DNA from: Escherichia coli | Lineage (GTDB): Bacteria > Pseudomonadota > Gammaproteobacteria > Enterobacterales > Enterobacteriaceae | NCBI RefSeq assembly: GCF_050920415.1 | Contig: NZ_CP169309.1 | DNA: 64,000 nt | Direction: 5' to 3' (one strand) | Shown: positions 3,299-36,400 of the stretch, piece after piece | How the letters are laid out: each line of letters starts with the position of its first letter | Position numbering within the stretch: position 1 is the first letter of the stretch | Notes under the pieces: model-generated | The model's input: only the letters and a program-made list of their open reading frames with translations | The model's database searches: none | What the model was told of the DNA's origin: nothing | Program-made: the position numbers and the translations under genes

Positions 3299-3697
3299 TG
3301 TAGTGATTTTGCACGCAGCACGTACTGTCAGAGAAATCACTGCTCTGACAGTACGCAAGATCATCTCATACTCTCCAGGTTTACAACATTATCCTTAATA
3401 TTTACTTCTTTTTGCTGACATCTACATTGAAATAAGTAGAAAACATCCCCCTCCTATCGTCCTTACAGACAGCTTACTGATTCAAAGGGAACTTTGTTTT
3501 CACATTTTTCTATCATCATTACTTTAGACGCGCGGGGTCTATAAATGCTTTGTACTTTCAGGGAATAAAGTAAATATAAAAAGATGGCATAAAGTTTATG
3601 CATGGCAGGATGTTTGCAACCTCCTTGAGGACGCTGTCCCATTGAAATTGCAAACCCCGCACTGGTTATCTGCCCATTTATCATGTAAAACAGACAA

Positions 3698-4507
3698 TTA
3701 TAGGTCTCTGAATATCTCAGAAAGATTGAATTTTTTATAGTCCCTCTCTTGGATATTTCCATTTGATATCAATCGATTCATCTCTTCAACAAAATAATTT
3801 ATATCATCACATTTGTTATTATCCGGAAGATCTGAATAATTATAATTCCACCACTTTATTCTCAACAATTCATCAATAATATTTGAATCAAATCTAAATC
3901 TGATTATTTTTGCAGGAACTCCTGCAACTATGGCATATGGTGGCACATCTTTGGTAACAACGGAATTGGCAGCAATAACAGCACCATCACCTATTGCGAT
4001 GCCACCTTTCAATACAACATCATTTCCTATCCAGACATCGTTTCCTATAATCGGATTTTCAGGTTTGGTAATGAATGGTTTCAATGTCCATGGCCGTTCG
4101 AACTCACTCAAGGCAAATTTATCAAATTCACCGTTATAAGTCATCATGTGAGTAGTAAAACGATTCATAGGATGATTTCCACCCATTATTTTTACATTTG
4201 ATGCAATACTACAAAATCGTCCTATATGTATATTCCCTGAAAAATGACAAGTTGGAAATGAAAATGCACCTACACTGGAAAAATTTTTTACAGGCATTGT
4301 TGAATATTCTTCAGCAATAACATTCTCTTCAATTGATATTTTGTCACCTTTTGAGAAAAGAAATAAATTCCTTTCTTTGTAAGACTTCTTCCCTTTATGA
4401 TTTAAAAATATTTTATTATCCATGCAAAATTCAAAGTGTTTTTTCGTCCACCTAAAGGTAATGGTTTTATTTTTATCTTCCGTGAATTTATATAACTGTA
4501 CGTTCAT
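3698..4507 (-). CDS. Hexapeptide-repeat (left-handed beta-helix) O-acetyltransferase, xenobiotic acetyltransferase (XAT/CatB/Vat)-like, with N- and C-terminal extensions; start codon uncertain
   Basis: ORF 3698..4507 (-), 269 aa; core ...NHPMNRFTTH...GNDVWIGNDVVLKGGIAIGDGAVIAANSVVTKDVPPYAIVAGVPAKIIRFRF is a typical XAT hexapeptide signature; strongly AT-rich unlike flanking genes; not recalled at this site in K-12. Confidence 0.8.
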   Translation of the reverse strand: MNVQLYKFTEDKNKTITFRWTKKHFEFCMDNKIFLNHKGKKSYKERNLFLFSKGDKISIEENVIAEEYSTMPVKNFSSVGAFSFPTCHFSGNIHIGRFCSIASNVKIMGGNHPMNRFTTHMMTYNGEFDKFALSEFERPWTLKPFITKPENPIIGNDVWIGNDVVLKGGIAIGDGAVIAANSVVTKDVPPYAIVAGVPAKIIRFRFDSNIIDELLRIKWWNYNYSDLPDNNKCDDINYFVEEMNRLISNGNIQERDYKKFNLSEIFRDL

Positions 4508-4740
4508 ACTAAAGACATCTACTTTTACTTATAAATTATTAGTTGAATAACGATACTCTAAAGTCTTCTATGAATCAACCATGACAGGATGAAAAATCAC
4601 CATCATACCTTTAGCGCATAATAGTCGTCTAACTTTTCCACTCGTTTTAATGTATTCATTCTTATTAATCGCCAATGACTCAAAACTTCAAACGATAGTG
4701 GCCATCATATAATTTCATATAACAGCCACTAACATTTAAC

Positions 4741-28503: not shown

Positions 28504-29505
28504 ATGAGTAAAGTTGGTATTAACGGTTTTGGTCGTATCGGTCGACTGGTGTTGCGTCGATTACTTGAAGTCAAAAGCAACATAGACATTGTCGCTATTA
28601 ATGATCTCACTTCCCCAAAAATTCTCGCCTACCTGCTGAAACATGATTCAAACTACGGACCGTTCCCCTGGAGCGTTGATTTTACGGAAGATTCACTTAT
28701 CGTTGATGGAAAAAGTATCGCGGTTTACGCCGAAAAAGAGGCTAAAAATATTCCATGGAAAGCGAAAGGCGCAGAAATCATTGTCGAATGTACTGGCTTT
28801 TATACCTCCGCCGAGAAATCGCAGGCGCACCTTGATGCTGGTGCGAAGAAGGTGTTGATTTCCGCCCCTGCCGGTGAAATGAAAACCATCGTTTATAACG
28901 TCAATGACGACACACTGGATGGCAACGACACCATTGTTTCCGTGGCGTCATGCACCACTAACTGTCTTGCACCGATGGCCAAAGCCTTGCACGACAGTTT
29001 CGGAATAGAAGTCGGCACGATGACGACCATTCATGCCTATACTGGCACCCAGTCACTGGTGGATGGCCCGCGAGGTAAAGATCTACGCGCTTCACGTGCA
29101 GCGGCAGAAAATATCATTCCCCACACTACAGGCGCGGCAAAAGCCATTGGTCTGGTGATCCCAGAACTGAGCGGCAAACTGAAAGGTCATGCGCAACGCG
29201 TACCCGTGAAAACAGGTTCGGTGACTGAACTGGTGTCTATTCTTGGAAAAAAAGTGACTGCCGAAGAGGTGAACAACGCGCTTAAAAACGCGACAAACAA
29301 TAACGAGTCATTTGGTTATACCGATGAAGAAATAGTCTCTTCTGATATCATTGGCAGCCATTTCGGGTCGGTGTTTGATGCCACGCAAACCGAAATTACC
29401 GCCGTGGGCGATTTACAGCTGGTGAAAACGGTCGCCTGGTATGATAACGAATATGGCTTCGTCACGCAGCTTATTCGCACCCTCGAAAAATTCGCTAAAC
29501 TCTGA
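28504..29505 (+). CDS. gapC: Glyceraldehyde-3-phosphate dehydrogenase C (GapC), apparently intact 333-aa reading frame
   Basis: ORF 28504..29505 (+); NGFGRIGR Rossmann motif, catalytic SCTTNCLAP; uninterrupted. Confidence 0.9.
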
Positions 29506-29546: not shown

Positions 29547-30986
29547 TTACGACTGTAAATAAACCACCTGGGTCTGCAGGTATTCATGCAAGCCATGTTT
29601 GCCATCTGCGCCGCCAATACCGGATTTACGCCATCCGGCGTGGAATCCTTGCATAGCTTCGAAGTTTTCACGGTTGATGTAAGTTTCACCAAACTTCAGC
29701 CCTTTAATAGCTTTCATCGCGACGTTCAGATTTTGGGTATAGAGTGATGAGGTCAGGCCGTAATCACTGTCATTAGCCATTGCGATAGCCTCTTCCAGCG
29801 TGTCAAATGCGACCACTGGCAGCACCGGGCCAAAGGTTTCCTCGTGCATAATCGACATTTCCTGACGAACATCCAGCAGCAAAGTCGGCGGATAATAATA
29901 TCCTTTCCCCTCAACCGCTTTGCCCCCCAACGCTACCCTCGCCCCCTCTTCGACTGCGCGCGCCACTTTTTGCTCGACCCTTTCCAGCGCCGCGGCGTTA
30001 ATCAACGGCCCCATCGCAATGTCGTTGCGTTCAGCGGGGTTACCAAATTGAACCGCCTGCATCGCTTCACCCAGCCGATTGACGAAATGATCATAAATGC
30101 CTTTCTGTACATAAACACGTTCTGCACAGTTACACACTTGCCCACTATTAATGACGCGTGAATCAACGATGGCTTTGACTGCCAGTTCAAGATCGGCATC
30201 GTCCATTACGATAGCTGGTGCTTTACCACCCAATTCCAGACACACTTTTGTGATATTTTTTGCTGCAGTCGCCATGATCTTTTCACCTGCAGAGACGCTG
30301 CCTGTCATACTGACCATTGCGACCTTTGGGTTACCCGCCAGTTCTTGCCCAACGGTTTCACCACGCCCCAGCACAAGGTTAAACACACCGCGTGGAAGGC
30401 CTATTTCATCGACAATTTTGGCAAAAGCAATCGCATTGTTTGGCGTAAATTCACTGGGTTTAATGACGATAGTATTACCGGTCAAAAGAGCGGGAGCCAT
30501 TTTGCGGGCAATGAGGAAGAACGGGAAGTTCCACGGCAGAATGCCGGTAGTCACGCCAAGCGCACGTTTAAAGAGAAGAATATTTTCTCCTGGACGATCG
30601 CTTTGAATAATCTCACCTTCGTAACGCCGCGCCCACTCTGCCATGTAATCGATATAATCCGCAGTAAATGCTACCTCAACTTCGGCCAGCTGCTGGAGCT
30701 TGCCCCCTTCTTCAACAATCAGCGCACTGATTTCACTGGCGCGTTCGCGGATCCCGACGGCGATTTTGCGTAACCAACTGGCGCGTTCAATGGCAGGCAA
30801 TGCTTCCCATTCTGGCTGCGCGCGCTCTGCGGCGTCGATTGCTTTGCGAGCATCTTCAGCCTGACCATCGGGAATGCGGGAAATCACCGCCTCTGTTGCG
30901 GGGTTAACCACATCAATCCATGCGTCTCCACGCCAGGTAACAAACTGTCCATCTATATACATAGGATGTTGAACGGGTACTGACAT
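29547..30986 (-). CDS. aldA: Lactaldehyde dehydrogenase AldA
   Basis: ORF 29547..30986 (-), 479 aa; aldehyde dehydrogenase family, MSVPVQHPMYIDGQFVTW... Confidence 0.95.
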   Translation of the reverse strand: MSVPVQHPMYIDGQFVTWRGDAWIDVVNPATEAVISRIPDGQAEDARKAIDAAERAQPEWEALPAIERASWLRKIAVGIRERASEISALIVEEGGKLQQLAEVEVAFTADYIDYMAEWARRYEGEIIQSDRPGENILLFKRALGVTTGILPWNFPFFLIARKMAPALLTGNTIVIKPSEFTPNNAIAFAKIVDEIGLPRGVFNLVLGRGETVGQELAGNPKVAMVSMTGSVSAGEKIMATAAKNITKVCLELGGKAPAIVMDDADLELAVKAIVDSRVINSGQVCNCAERVYVQKGIYDHFVNRLGEAMQAVQFGNPAERNDIAMGPLINAAALERVEQKVARAVEEGARVALGGKAVEGKGYYYPPTLLLDVRQEMSIMHEETFGPVLPVVAFDTLEEAIAMANDSDYGLTSSLYTQNLNVAMKAIKGLKFGETYINRENFEAMQGFHAGWRKSGIGGADGKHGLHEYLQTQVVYLQS

Positions 30987-31181
30987 GGGCGACTCCTGTG
31001 ATTTATATGTTTGTTTTTGGTAAATGTATTGTTAATTAACATCAATCATCATAGAGACGGCATCGTGAAAGGACAATTCTGTGAAGGGCTTCATAAAAAG
31101 AAGGGTAAAAGGAATAAAAGGCAGAAAAAAAAGTAAGGAGTCATGCCCGTTTGCAAACAGTTGTTCTCAAACGGGCAATTT

Positions 31182-31982
31182 TCAACGTAGCGAGCGACTT
31201 TCCATCGCCTCGATAAGCACAGCATCGTGTTTCAGCGTTTGCCATGCCTGGGTGACTTCTGCAGGAAAATCAACGTGAACGATAAAATCTCGCCCACGGG
31301 GACCATAGCCATCACTATCATCGCGTAAACGTGGCATCTCACCGGTAAGCAGTGATAGATAACGCTCAACCGGCCATAATCCTTCTAACTGGTTAATAAA
31401 GATTACACTGTCTTCGTTATTTCCCAACTGAGGAACGAATCCGGGATAACTTAACCAACGAGGTGCGTCTGGATTGTCACCGGTAATACGACGGAACGTC
31501 GCCATTGTGCGCCGCTGCATGGTGGGATCCTGTACAACAATAGCGGTGTGAACTCGTTCTACGGCCTGATTCAGTAGAGCAATGCTAAAGCGTGCGTTTT
31601 CACCGCAGTTTGTTGACTGGTCTTCAATCCAGATTTTTTCATGCGGAATGTGCCAGAACTGATGAGCGATATCCGCCAGGATGGTAGCTTCTGCTCTGCC
31701 AGTGGTGCGGATAGTGTTGTAGTGCGGATGCTGTGCGATGGCGCTATACAAAAAAGTTGTCGAGTGACCGATACCACCACTAATCAGTAGAGGAATTTGC
31801 TGATCGCGGGCAATCTTACATGCCGCATCGATAGTCGGCATAACCGCATTGCCTGCAAGGATCACGCAATCGGCCTGATACGGCACCTCACCGGAGAAAT
31901 CATCCTGCGCCAGCCACTGACCGATAACATTTATGGCATCTATGGTTGCCGGCGAAAGCGTCGGAAACGGGGTAATGTTCAT
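31182..31982 (-). CDS. ydcF: DUF218 (YdcF-like) protein
   Basis: ORF 31182..31982 (-), 266 aa, [24 protein letters not shown]... Confidence 0.9.
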
Positions 31983-32395
31983 GGTTCCTCCTTATCGTTC
32001 CCTTAAGAATACTGCGTGAGATAATAATGAGAAGCGGAGCACTCTGAAAGGAAGATGATGCTTTTTCTATCGCGCCATCGCGAACCAGACACTGGTTTTA
32101 GTCATACTGTATTTGCGGAGAAACTGTTGATAAAACATCAATAACATAATGTTCTATCATTTTTAAATGACAGATAATCTGGTGTGATATTTATATAATA
32201 TTCATTCTTATATTTCTCAATCAAGGGAACATTTGGTATCCAGTGTATCATCCTCATCAACCAGATGTGTTATAAGCACTTTACCTCGTTAATTTTAATA
32301 TTACGAGTTACAGGACAAAACATCACTCGCATTTAGTCCAGTAACTCGTAGTAGCCAGAGTATACATACCCATTGATAAAATGCCTGGCAATAAA

Positions 32396-33253
32396 TTAAC
32401 CCGCTATACTCGCACTCGTCGGCCCTGTTTCAATACTACCCACAATATCAATAATGTGACCCCAGAACATATCATCATCGTTATAATATAATGAATAATC
32501 TCCATTATAATCCATAGCCAACTCAACAAGATTTATTCTGCTAACAAACATATCTTCTGTAATTTCTTCATCTTCTTCATCTTGAAGCCAGTCATTGGCC
32601 AATTCAGTTAATTGTTCTGCAGCATATTGGCGGAACTCCTGATCTTTTTGTTGCATATGACTACATAAAAATCGCAGATTTTCAAAAGCCTGTTGCCAGG
32701 TATATCTATCATTCTTATCTACTTCCATAGATACAGAAATATTCTGATCATTCCATTTCACTTCCCCGCTAAAACAGGAGTAGTCTTTATTAAGCACGAA
32801 AGTCCCCAATTGCTGATCTTCAACAACAACTGGTTTGCGATATTCTTTCTGAATATTGAGCAGTTCCTCACACTGAACATGACTTTCAAGAACCTCAAGA
32901 ACATAAAACCGATTATAAAACTCGGCTAACTTTCCTTCCGGCACGGTCCTGTCAATCAAATCTCGTACTCTCAGGCGATATATACCACCAGACTGCATAT
33001 TAAACGGCCACGCACAGCCTTGAGTTTTCTCATTTTCTTCTGTTATCAACCAGTTGAGTCGTCCATCTCCAACGTGAATTTCTCCCGTAGTCAGACTCTT
33101 CCAGGCGAGTAAGTGTTCAACCGCTGTCCAGTAATTATCACCGTTACTCTTACCCGCGCCACCGCCAGTATCACTAAGAAGAACGATAATTTCTTCTTCT
33201 GTATCTTTAAATGTATGACTAAATTTTTTGTATTCTTCAGAATTTAAGTCCAT
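32396..33253 (-). CDS. Hypothetical acidic cytoplasmic protein (285 aa), no recognisable family; strain-variable islet gene
   Basis: ORF 32396..33253 (-); AT-rich coding sequence in an AT-rich 1.4-kb segment between ydcF and hrpA; no TM or signal peptide; Asp/Glu-rich C-terminal half; not recalled in K-12 at this site. Confidence 0.75.
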   Translation of the reverse strand: MDLNSEEYKKFSHTFKDTEEEIIVLLSDTGGGAGKSNGDNYWTAVEHLLAWKSLTTGEIHVGDGRLNWLITEENEKTQGCAWPFNMQSGGIYRLRVRDLIDRTVPEGKLAEFYNRFYVLEVLESHVQCEELLNIQKEYRKPVVVEDQQLGTFVLNKDYSCFSGEVKWNDQNISVSMEVDKNDRYTWQQAFENLRFLCSHMQQKDQEFRQYAAEQLTELANDWLQDEEDEEITEDMFVSRINLVELAMDYNGDYSLYYNDDDMFWGHIIDIVGSIETGPTSASIAG

Positions 33254-33402
33254 TTTTGCCCCGGTGAAAAATAAATTTGATCAATAACATTGAGTGCCGC
33301 AGTAAAGAATGTGTTATCGATAATTCAAAAATGACTGCGTACGCCACAAGCCTACTCCCCACGCGACGTAAGGAGTACCGCCCTTGCTATTTTTCAGAAT
33401 TC

Positions 33403-33440
33403 ATAAAGAAAAAACCCGGCGCTAAATGCTGACCGGGTTT
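33403..33440 (-). terminator. Rho-independent terminator of hrpA
   Basis: aacccgg...ccgggtt stem with T-run on the minus strand immediately downstream of the hrpA stop. Confidence 0.55.
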
Positions 33441-33465
33441 TAGATTTATCAGGTAAATAGCAGGA

Positions 33466-36400
33466 TTAACCGCTAATCTGCTCCATCGCCTGCAAAATAC
33501 GCTTATCCGAAATCGGATAAGGCGTACCAAGTTGTTGAGCGAAGTAGCTGACGCGCAGCTCTTCTATCATCCAGCGGATCTCTTTTACGTCTTCATCTTC
33601 ACGACGTGCTGGCGGCAGTTTGTTGATCCACTGCTGCCACGCCTGCTGGACATTTTCGACTTTCAGCATCTGGGCGCGGTCGCGATGTGGATCAACCGCC
33701 AGTTTTTCCAGACGTTTTTCAATCGCCTGTAAATAACGCAGCGTGTCGCCCAGCCGTTTAAAACCGTTGCCAGTGACAAAACCGCGATACACCAGCCCGC
33801 CCATCTGCGCTTTAATGTCAGAAAGCCCCAGCGCCATGGTCATATCCACCCGTCCTTTCAGGCGTTTGTTGATATTGAACACTGCCGTAAGGATTTGCTC
33901 GACCTGCTTCGCAATATCCACCACCGTGTCGTTCAGTTCAGCGCGGACTTTTTCATGAAGCGCGGCAAAGCCTTCTTCCGTCCAGACCGGGCCGCCCGCC
34001 TCATCAATCAACTTATCAACACCGCAGGAGATGCAGTCGTCAATGAGATCCAGCACTTTACCGTACGGGTTAAAGTAGAGACCCAGCTTCGCTTTGTTCG
34101 GCAGTTTCTCATGCAGATATTTAATTGGCGACGGAATGTTCAGCAACAGCAAGCGACGCAAACCACGCCACATAGCCTGCTGTTGTTCCTGCGGGTTATC
34201 AAAAAGCTTAATCGCTACGCTGTCACGCTCATCCACCAGCGCAGGCCAGGCCTTCACTTTGTAGTTGCCACGTTTCTGCTCGTAGTGATCCGGTAAATTA
34301 CCGAAGCTCCAGATATGTAACCCGCTTTGCTCAATACCATCATCGGCAACGGCGGAAAGCGTTTCCTGCACTTTGCCTTTCAGGGCGTCTTTCAGATCCT
34401 GTAATGAGCGCCCTTCTTTTAGCTTCTTATTTTTGTCGTCCACCACGCGGAAGGTGATTTTCAGGTGATCGGGCACCTGATCCCAGTGCCAGTCTTCGCG
34501 GTCAACGGTAACGCCGGTCATCCGCCGTAGCTCGCGCTCAAGGCTGTCGAGCAACGGCAGTTCCAACGGCGTGACGCGACCTAAAAACGCTTCGGCGTAG
34601 TTTGGCGCGGGTACAAAATTACGCCGTACCGGTTTCGGCAACGATTTGATTAGAGCAATCACCAGTTCACGGCGCAGGCCTGGGATCTGCCACTCAAACC
34701 CGCTTTCCTCAACCTGGTTAAGTAACGGCAGCGGAATATGCACGGTCACACCGTCAGCATCCGCCCCCGGCTCAAACTGATAGCTTAAACGCAGCTTGAG
34801 ATTGCCCTGATGCCAGAAGTTCGGGTAATCCAGCTTGCTGATTTTTTCCGCCCCTTCTTTGATCAACATGCTCTTTTCAAAGTTGAGCAAATCAGGTGTT
34901 TCGCGGCTGACTTTTTTCCACCAACTATCAAAGTGTCGTGAGGAGATCACATCGTGGCTGATGCGCTGGTCGTAAAATTCAAACAACGTTTCGTCATCCA
35001 CCAGAATATCGCGGCGACGTGATTTGTGTTCCAGTTCTTCCACTTCTGCCCGTAGTTTCAGGTTTTCACGGAAGAATGCGTGACGCGTCTGCCAGTCACC
35101 TTCCACCAGCGCGTGGCGAATAAAAAGTTCACGACACAGCGCAGGATCAATCTGGCTGTAGTTGACCTTACGCGCAGCAACAATCGGCAACCCGTAAACG
35201 GTGACTTTTTCAGTTGCCATCACCGCGCCCTGCGCCCGTTCCCAGTGCGGTTCGCTGTAGGAGCATTTAATCAAATGCTGGGCAACTGGCTCTACCCATT
35301 CCGGATCGATGCGTGCCGCAATGCGCCCCCACAGGCGGCTGGTTTCTACCAGTTCCGCCACCATTGCCCATTTCGGCGGCTTCTTGAATAAACCAGAACC
35401 GGGGAAGATGGAGAAACGCGCGTTACGTGCGCCGGTATATTCCTGTTTATCGGCATCTTTCATGCCGATATGCGAAAGCAAACCTGTCAGTAAGGCGATG
35501 TGAATTTCGCGATACTCCGCCGGTTCGCTGTTAACCGGAATGCCAAGTTCTTTCACCACCTGGCGCAACTGGGTGTAGATATCCTGCCATTCGCGCACGC
35601 GCAGATAGTTAAGGTAATCGGTACGGCACAGGCGACGGAAGGCGTTTGAAGAGAGCGCCTTTTGCTGCTCGCCGAGATAATTCCACAGATTTACAAACGC
35701 CAGGAAGTCGGATTCTTTATCGTGAAAGCGACGATGTTTTTCGTCCGATGCCTGCTGCTTGTCCATTGGCCGCTCACGCGGGTCCTGAATAGAGAGCGCG
35801 GAAGTGATAATCATCGCCTCACGCACGCAGCCATGTTTCTGCGCTTCCAGCACCATTCGCGCCAGACGAGGATCGACTGGCAGTTGCGAGAGCTGGCGAC
35901 CGAGCGGCGTCAGTTTATAGGCGCTGGCCTGTTCATCAGTGGTGATCGCGCCCAGCTCTTCGAGCAGACGCACGCCATCCTGGATATTGCGTTTATCCGG
36001 CGCTTCTACAAACGGGAACGCAGCGATATCGCCCAGCCCCAGCGCGGTCATCTGCAAAATAACCGAGGCCAGGTTGGTACGCAGAATCTCCGGATCGGTA
36101 AACTCCGGGCGCGAGAGGAAATCGTCTTCGGAATAAAGACGAATGCAGATCCCTTCTGACACACGACCACAGCGGCCTTTACGCTGATTAGCTGAAGCCT
36201 GCGAAATGGGCTCAATCGGCAGACGCTGCACTTTGGTGCGATAGCTGTAGCGGCTGATACGCGCCGTACCTGGGTCGATAACGTATTTAATCCCCGGCAC
36301 AGTCAGCGAGGTTTCCGCGACGTTAGTCGCCAGCACAATGCGCCGTCCGCTGTGCGACTGGAAGACGCGGTTCTGCTCGCTGTTCGAAAGCCGTGCATAA

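Follow-up and report, generated by a model that had tools for sequence, protein, structure and literature searches.

A rare DUF7021-DUF2262 gene at a variable site between ydcF and hrpA of Escherichia as a candidate orphan immunity gene against polymorphic toxins

In the 64,000-nucleotide stretch of Escherichia coli contig NZ_CP169309.1 (assembly GCF_050920415.1) analysed here, hereafter the window, the spacer between ydcF and hrpA harbours an AT-rich islet with a single open reading frame (ORF), which lies on the minus strand at 32396-33253 and encodes an acidic protein of 285 amino acids (aa). The gene is genuine and intact; it is rare, has a foreign composition and evolves under purifying selection. 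We propose, with moderate confidence, that its product is an orphan cytoplasmic immunity protein directed against a polymorphic toxin, and that it represents a family combining the domains DUF7021 and DUF2262 that has not previously been catalogued among immunity proteins. This proposal gains support because homologues of the gene are embedded in arrays of recognized immunity families, and also because in other E. coli an SMI1/KNR4 (SUKH) gene can be found at this very site. The original prediction, which was made from the sequence of the window, had likened the protein to orphan immunity or anti-defence proteins; these two observations support the first half of that comparison, whereas nothing was found in favour of the second half, there being neither phage copies nor PADLOC or anti-restriction matches.

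Domain architecture and gene neighborhoods of the DUF7021-DUF2262 family

Although the original prediction could name no family for this protein, Pfam profiles cover both of its halves, and the identical gene in RefSeq (WP_000365422.1) is named 'DUF2262 domain-containing protein'. The coding features are as follows:

32396-33253, minus strand: coding sequence (CDS) of the 285-aa acidic cytoplasmic protein, with an ATG start and a DUF7021-DUF2262 architecture (ORF listing)
32840-33232, minus strand: N-terminal domain DUF7021, residues 8-138, a five-stranded barrel resembling the oligonucleotide/oligosaccharide-binding (OB) fold (PF22886, i-Evalue 5.8e-31)
32405-32818, minus strand: C-terminal domain DUF2262, residues 146-283, of alpha+beta type (PF10020, i-Evalue 2.2e-44, spanning model positions 1-142 of 142)

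Inspection of the protein sequence showed neither a hydrophobic segment nor an export signal, in agreement with the earlier view that signal peptide and transmembrane segments are lacking. The AlphaFold2 model has a predicted local distance difference test (pLDDT) score of 93.8, and no convincing match to the DUF2262 domain was found among solved structures. The predicted isoelectric point (pI) is 4.38 for the whole protein (54 acidic D and E against 24 basic K and R residues), 4.05 for the C-terminal half and 4.9 for the DUF7021 domain. Both sequence features singled out at the outset, a GGGAG stretch (residues 30-34) and a very acidic C-terminal half with DEEDEE (225-230) and DDD (259-261) runs, are present, but GGGAGKS is not conserved as a motif in the family and the DEEDEE run forms a loop of variable length that is modelled with lower confidence. 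We likewise rejected a reading of TGGGAGKS as the Walker A motif of a P-loop NTPase, as it is unconserved in the homologues and sits in a loop between barrel strands. The residues that are invariant in a 40-sequence alignment of the family (W68, A211, L215, A219, F236, D259, F263, G265, H266 and G285) are all retained in the window protein.

An exhaustive profile search, in which clusters were defined at 50% identity, recovered 3,340 cluster representatives at E <= 0.001 and 2,066 at E <= 1e-10, from Proteobacteria, Firmicutes, Actinobacteria, Bacteroidota and a single archaeal metagenome-assembled genome (MAG). The 112 closest relatives nearly all share the two-domain architecture and mostly span 270-300 aa, together with a few shorter fragments or proteins with DUF2262 alone; the apparently 'solo' DUF2262 proteins turned out to come from split genes, the DUF7021 ORF being located directly upstream. 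Rare longer relatives among the 3,340 add membrane segments, a second DUF7021 domain or DUF5713, and none of these long architectures shows a fusion to a toxin domain. The DUF5713 fusion was seen in one relative, and DUF5713 is also a family whose genes neighbour DUF2262 genes in arrays; a planctomycete protein additionally combines ankyrin repeats with a DUF2262-like domain. Scans of the window protein against NCBIfam, PADLOC and PHROGs gave nothing significant, and no enzymatic, defence or phage family was matched in these or in Pfam, while a profile search against PDB sequences returned a single spurious match (E = 0.6). Literature queries on DUF2262, DUF7021, DUF2004 and DUF4241 with immunity yielded no searchable paper, and the matches to PF10020 were names of Plasmodium genes.

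In order to view the family in its genomic setting, one genome per species was scanned, which gave at least 397 relatives, and the analysis covered 80 loci with as much as 8 kb on either side. These loci derive from gut Oscillospiraceae and Lachnospiraceae, Actinomyces/Schaalia, Bacteroidales, a spirochaete MAG and a Methanomassiliicoccales MAG; the distribution across phyla is patchy, and several genomes hold more than one copy. Clustering of the neighbours showed that in many Clostridia the gene lies inside long co-directional arrays, which differ from genome to genome in the genes that they contain and in the order of these. A recurrent array gene is present in 40 of the 80 loci, and at 29 of the 80 there is a neighbour from a cluster that maps to the Imm17, SUKH-3, Imm-NTF2, SUFU or ankyrin immunity families. 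The recurrent neighbours as a whole belong to the Pfam families DUF4241, DUF6138, DUF6892, DUF5713, SUFU, DKNYY, Imm33, Imm-NTF2, SUKH-3, Imm17 and ankyrin, and also include NADAR. For example, in Flavonifractor plautii CP048436 (L111, 3155-20840) at least 27 co-directional genes form an array adjoining a tyrosine recombinase, in which two DUF2262 paralogues are accompanied by Imm17, SUKH-3, DUF5713, DUF4241, Imm-NTF2 and NADAR genes. Most members of this array have no Pfam family. One of the F. plautii DUF2262 paralogues occurs in 773 assembly-index blocks, which implies that this paralogue, and probably the array as well, is very common in gut metagenomes. An independent array links a 45%-identical homologue to Imm44, Imm26/Imm51 and Imm68 plus DUF1963 genes, and a copy in Flammeovirgaceae follows a DUF1963 gene.

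Several of the arrays in Firmicutes adjoin modules of integrative and conjugative elements (ICEs), such as TraG/VirD4, relaxase and Maff2 genes, and three conjugative megaplasmids of Bacillus carry a copy. Elsewhere the gene has only housekeeping genes or a Phd/Doc pair beside it. Candidate 'toxins' upstream of the gene in several loci were discarded, being in reality PPDK, MnmG, ParB, ATP synthase, GMP synthase, the Phd/Doc pair or TraG/VirD4. Examination of the neighborhoods for toxin or defence genes, which had been advocated along with the original prediction, thus uncovered immunity arrays but no polymorphic-toxin neighbours; no homologue bears a housekeeping annotation.

The ydcF-hrpA spacer is a multi-allelic cassette hotspot

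As was stated when the islet was first noticed, ydcF and hrpA are adjacent in K-12, where 272 nucleotides separate them; in the window the spacer (31983-33465) measures 1,483 nucleotides. Windowed composition gave a GC fraction of 0.34-0.43 over 31900-33400 against 0.49-0.57 in ydcF and hrpA. The ORF itself has a GC fraction of 0.388 and a value of 0.329 at third codon positions (GC3), as against 0.503 and 0.479 for ydcF and 0.535 and 0.608 for hrpA. This agrees with the AT-rich islet and the exact ORF reported at the outset, and the GC3 of 0.33 is not core-like. The non-coding flanks of the ORF are indeed AT-rich but are not featureless, as they include a gene remnant on the left and the hrpA terminator hairpin on the right:

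31983-32052, no strand: ydcF-proximal spacer forming the left border of the hotspot, common to nearly all E. coli (alignment with K-12)
32053-33391, no strand: variable islet, GC 0.38, with no K-12 counterpart (alignments and blastn against K-12; composition)
32098-32163, minus strand: 66-nucleotide gene remnant, comprising only the 3' end of the hypothetical gene for 125 aa that lies nearest to ydcF in the O157-type four-gene allele
32228-32279, no strand: 52-nucleotide spacer also found in the SMI1/KNR4 allele, there on the other side of the cargo (blastn, 88% identity to L002 5136-5187)
32299-32353, minus strand: strong hairpin with 22-nucleotide arms, 45-95 nucleotides past the stop codon (inverted repeat I1)
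33254-33391, minus strand: islet-specific non-coding region upstream of the gene, with a weak GGGG 5 nucleotides before the ATG and no promoter found
33403-33449, minus strand: hrpA terminator hairpin forming the right border of the hotspot (inverted repeat I4), kept in K-12 and every other allele (alignment of the K-12, O157 and SMI1 alleles)

In place of 32053-33391, K-12 holds about 130 nucleotides of unrelated filler. Searches with megablast and blastn found the gene in 4 of 5,426 complete E. coli genomes, every time between ydcF and hrpA, whereas in 5,319 of them the first ~70 nucleotides of the query were the sole match. A presence of this kind places the islet well beyond chance and outside the core genome, as expected of the strain-specific accessory gene that had been predicted. 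Five states of the spacer were seen: an empty one (K-12), one with four hypothetical genes (O157:H7 and others), one with an SMI1/KNR4 (SUKH) gene and a 99-aa ORF, one with a DUF2262 gene followed by four small genes, and that of the window with the DUF2262 gene alone. Judging by a spread sample of 60 of 5,418 records, the rough shares are ~85% empty, ~10% four-gene and ~3% SUKH. The four-gene allele, the commonest non-empty one, consists of co-directional genes for proteins of 141, 112, 143 or 80, and 125 aa (L099, 2117-3805, in E. coli O157:H7; L005, 8997-10685). These four small proteins have no Pfam or NCBIfam match, and their genes may be further uncharacterized cassettes of the immunity type.

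Traces of exchange between these alleles persist within the islet. The identical RefSeq record annotates the remnant at 32098-32163 as an incomplete CDS, and the sequence shared with the O157 allele ends at about 32150-32163. Furthermore, the 52-nucleotide spacer flanks the cargo on one side in the window and on the other in the SUKH allele, which suggests modular exchange of cassettes and points to either an ancestral two-cassette array or an insertion at two junctions. The edges of the islet show no direct repeats, att-like sites or mobility genes. The notion that the islet arrived together with unusually divergent flanks was rejected, since identity to K-12 is 93.6-96.8% across the whole window and the flanks are unexceptional. 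The hairpin downstream of the gene (RNA fold of -34 kcal/mol, z = -4.9 versus shuffles) is likely a transcript-end or stabilizing structure; it has no T-run and is hence not a canonical intrinsic terminator.

Related species use the same site. A 52%-identical gene adjoins hrpA in E. albertii (L014), and E. fergusonii CP040805 has a ~90%-identical but interrupted copy between hrpA and ydcF (L116, 10001-12056), which is broken into one part for a 273-aa product and another, ~1 kb downstream, for a 63-aa DUF2262 fragment, implying an insertion or rearrangement inside the gene. These copies indicate that the site is used across the genus, and all Escherichia copies are chromosomal and without mobility genes. 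Comparison of the alleles gave a ratio of nonsynonymous to synonymous substitution rates (dN/dS) of 0.22-0.33, with a dN of 0.053-0.096 as against 0.002-0.015 in ydcF and hrpA, that is 5-25 times that of the flanks. The horizontally acquired gene evolves faster than its flanks but is under purifying selection, and we take it to be functional.

An immunity function and its alternatives

We propose that the acidic two-domain protein would act in the cytoplasm by binding a polymorphic toxin delivered by contact, at the toxic C-terminal domain of the latter. For Escherichia, such a toxin could belong to the contact-dependent inhibition (CDI), Rhs/type VI secretion system (T6SS) or colicin-like types, and in Firmicutes to the LXG/type VII secretion system (T7SS) type. 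The acidity of the protein suggests that the target would probably be a basic toxin acting on nucleic acids; binding would block its active or substrate-binding surface, and a cell that does not make the toxin itself would thereby be protected. The gene would spread by horizontal transfer, through ICEs and conjugative plasmids in Firmicutes and through allelic replacement via the conserved flanks in Escherichia, and would be retained through intermittent selection by toxin-bearing competitors. That the protein binds a toxin, what kind of toxin this would be and that the cell would gain protection are all inferred from gene association.

Several points weigh against this proposal. The case for it is one of guilt by association. 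No toxin gene adjoins a DUF2262 gene in any of the ~100 loci examined or in the window, for which the lack of a neighbouring toxin had been noted from the start; the classical defining context, with the immunity gene right after the toxin, is consequently absent. Many of the array loci are from related Oscillospiraceae elements and hence are not independent of each other, and there are many lineages in which it stands alone next to housekeeping genes such as parB, PPDK and atpC. The family is not listed as an immunity family in any searchable paper, and a simple scan of the minus strand of 33254-33391 detected no sigma-70-like site. Finally, an N-D-D-D-M-F-W-G-H motif and the C-terminal glycine are invariant across phyla, which is unusual for a pure binder, and may mark a catalytic or ligand-binding site.

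This last point leads to the alternative that the protein is an enzymatic or ligand-binding participant in conflict, with D259, D261 and H266 as a presumed metal or catalytic site through which a toxin modification would be reversed or a toxic small molecule destroyed. NADAR and ADP-ribosylglycohydrolase-type immunity proteins act enzymatically, and NADAR, an enzymatic member of the arrays, co-occurs with the gene. The (near) invariance of polar residues across phyla, the invariant C-terminus and the strong overall purifying selection are also consistent with an active site. We regard this alternative as unlikely, while giving it more credence than those that follow.

A second alternative is that the protein is an anti-defence factor, for example a DNA mimic or an anti-restriction protein, carried by mobile elements to shield incoming DNA. 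The very acidic character of the protein (pI 4.4), the proximity of Firmicute copies to integrative-element genes (TraG/VirD4, relaxase and Maff2) and the carriage on conjugative Bacillus megaplasmids would all fit such a role. Yet there are 0 copies in 50,697 phage records, the matches to PHROGs are all insignificant, and no match in fold to ArdA, Ocr or similar proteins was found. Moreover, the Escherichia gene is chromosomal with no mobility genes, and its counterparts in arrays neighbour immunity families rather than known anti-defence genes. These observations render an anti-defence role distinctly unlikely.

Two further alternatives derive from a lead in the AFDB models, namely a distant structural resemblance of DUF2262 to DUF4868, the family of the DNA-binding domain of the Kiwa effector KwaB (PMC11785009). 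In its broader form, DUF2262 would be a distant structural relative of DUF4868 fused to an OB-like barrel, the two constituting a self-contained nucleic-acid-directed or nucleic-acid-mimicking module, for example a decoy titrating DNA-targeting toxins or defence proteins, rather than an immunity protein that binds a toxin. We accord this form a slim chance; if it were true, some of the 'polyimmunity arrays' annotated on gut ICEs would comprise single-gene systems of a new class. The lead itself was pursued in the Kiwa paper, with a KwaB-like gene of plasmid pMUT2, by a PDB sequence search and by hhalign, and could not be confirmed; for hhalign the probability was 0.2% when the KwaB-like alignment was derived from the pMUT2 gene. 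There is also no PF16162 match in the Pfam scan, no PADLOC family (0 found) and no kwaA-like membrane-protein ORF in the islet. The pMUT2 plasmid of E. coli Nissle (L115, 1946-3738) has a kwaA gene paired with one for a 380-aa KwaB-like protein, a defence module of the Kiwa type.

It is also improbable, and in our estimate slightly more so, that the gene is in decay and has no current function in this strain, having been left behind, silenced, from a larger array of cassettes. The truncation of the neighbouring cassette gene to 66 nucleotides, the interrupted copy of E. fergusonii and the absence of an upstream promoter-like site in the sigma-70 scan are compatible with decay, and so is the composition of the islet, AT-rich DNA being a typical target of H-NS. 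Against this, the ORF is intact in 4 of the 4 E. coli genomes that have it, with a dN/dS of 0.22-0.33, all family invariants are kept and the fold prediction is very confident. Least probable of all is the narrower form of the KwaB hypothesis, in which DUF2262 would bind DNA with the assistance of the OB-like barrel and the protein would be a lone defence or regulatory factor.

If the protein is an immunity protein, as we favour, a large immunity family (~3,340 clusters), whose C-terminal fold has no convincing solved relative, would be absent from current catalogues, and its members would offer a concrete handle for finding the cognate toxin. Their recognition would also help in annotating immunity arrays, which are very common on the integrative elements of Clostridia from the human gut. 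At the level of the locus, the ydcF-hrpA spacer is defined as a cassette hotspot common to E. coli, E. albertii and E. fergusonii, which could serve as a marker of the history of interbacterial competition. The result is incremental and brings no conceptual surprise.

The remainder of the window and comparison with known systems

The window is 93.6-96.8% identical to K-12 (tested over 29983-35465 and by blastn of 1-48104), and an identity of at least 95% over the aldA-hrpA stretch is reached in only 18 of 5,418 complete E. coli genomes. The DNA comes from a divergent lineage of Escherichia that may represent a cryptic clade. Several other differences from K-12 were encountered. A second AT-rich replacement islet at 3404-4740 has no match in K-12, which has ortT-yncL there; its ORF at 3698-4507 (minus strand) encodes a 269-aa protein with a hexapeptide-repeat C-terminus, a candidate acetyltransferase of the Vat/CatB type. 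The hicAB toxin-antitoxin pair and the insQ/IS200 remnant of K-12 are missing from the window (at ~12057 and ~16393; blastn breakpoints L109 12057-12502 and 16834-18583). The gapC (gap) ORF at 28504-29505 (plus strand) is intact and encodes 333 aa, where the K-12 annotation has a frameshifted pseudogene. An intact ORF of 1,845 aa at 46417-51954 (minus strand) occupies the place of the K-12 ydbA autotransporter pseudogene, which is disrupted by an insertion sequence (IS), and similarity to K-12 falls after ~48104.

Among known systems, the OB-fold single-stranded DNA-binding proteins (SSB, RPA and PriB) share with the N-terminal domain only the topology of a very common fold; identity is 5-14%, no family is matched and the window domain is acidic (pI 4.9). 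DUF2004 proteins are single-domain, uncharacterized and without literature. Anti-restriction DNA mimics of the ArdA and Ocr type are distinguished by an origin in phages or plasmid leading regions and by likeness to a known mimic, neither of which was found here. The resemblance to SUKH (SMI1/KNR4) proteins is one of setting and general character: other E. coli strains have a SUKH gene between ydcF and hrpA, SUKH-3 neighbours DUF2262 in arrays, and proteins of both families are cytoplasmic and lack an enzymatic signature. The two are unrelated in sequence and fold, and the DUF2262 proteins differ in having two domains, an OB-like barrel and an alpha+beta domain.

The closest parallel is to the heterogeneous polyimmunity loci described by Zhang et al. 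(2012, PMC3482391), which are co-directional, devoid of toxins, variable between strains and often placed beside recombinases. The homologue arrays are reminiscent of these in being long, co-directional, strain-variable and toxin-less and in containing recognized Imm families, and they also resemble the acquired interbacterial defence (AID) arrays of gut Bacteroidales. The window itself departs from both kinds of array in having a single gene and no recombinase, and its family stands outside the named Imm families. Of the properties by which Zhang et al. (2012) recognize immunity proteins, a position immediately downstream of a toxin gene was seen neither in the window nor in the ~100 homologous loci, whereas a toxin-less polyimmunity context is found at the level of the family and strain variability and fast evolution are both observed. 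In being toxin-less and strain-variable, the window gene is thus like the cargo of a polyimmunity locus.

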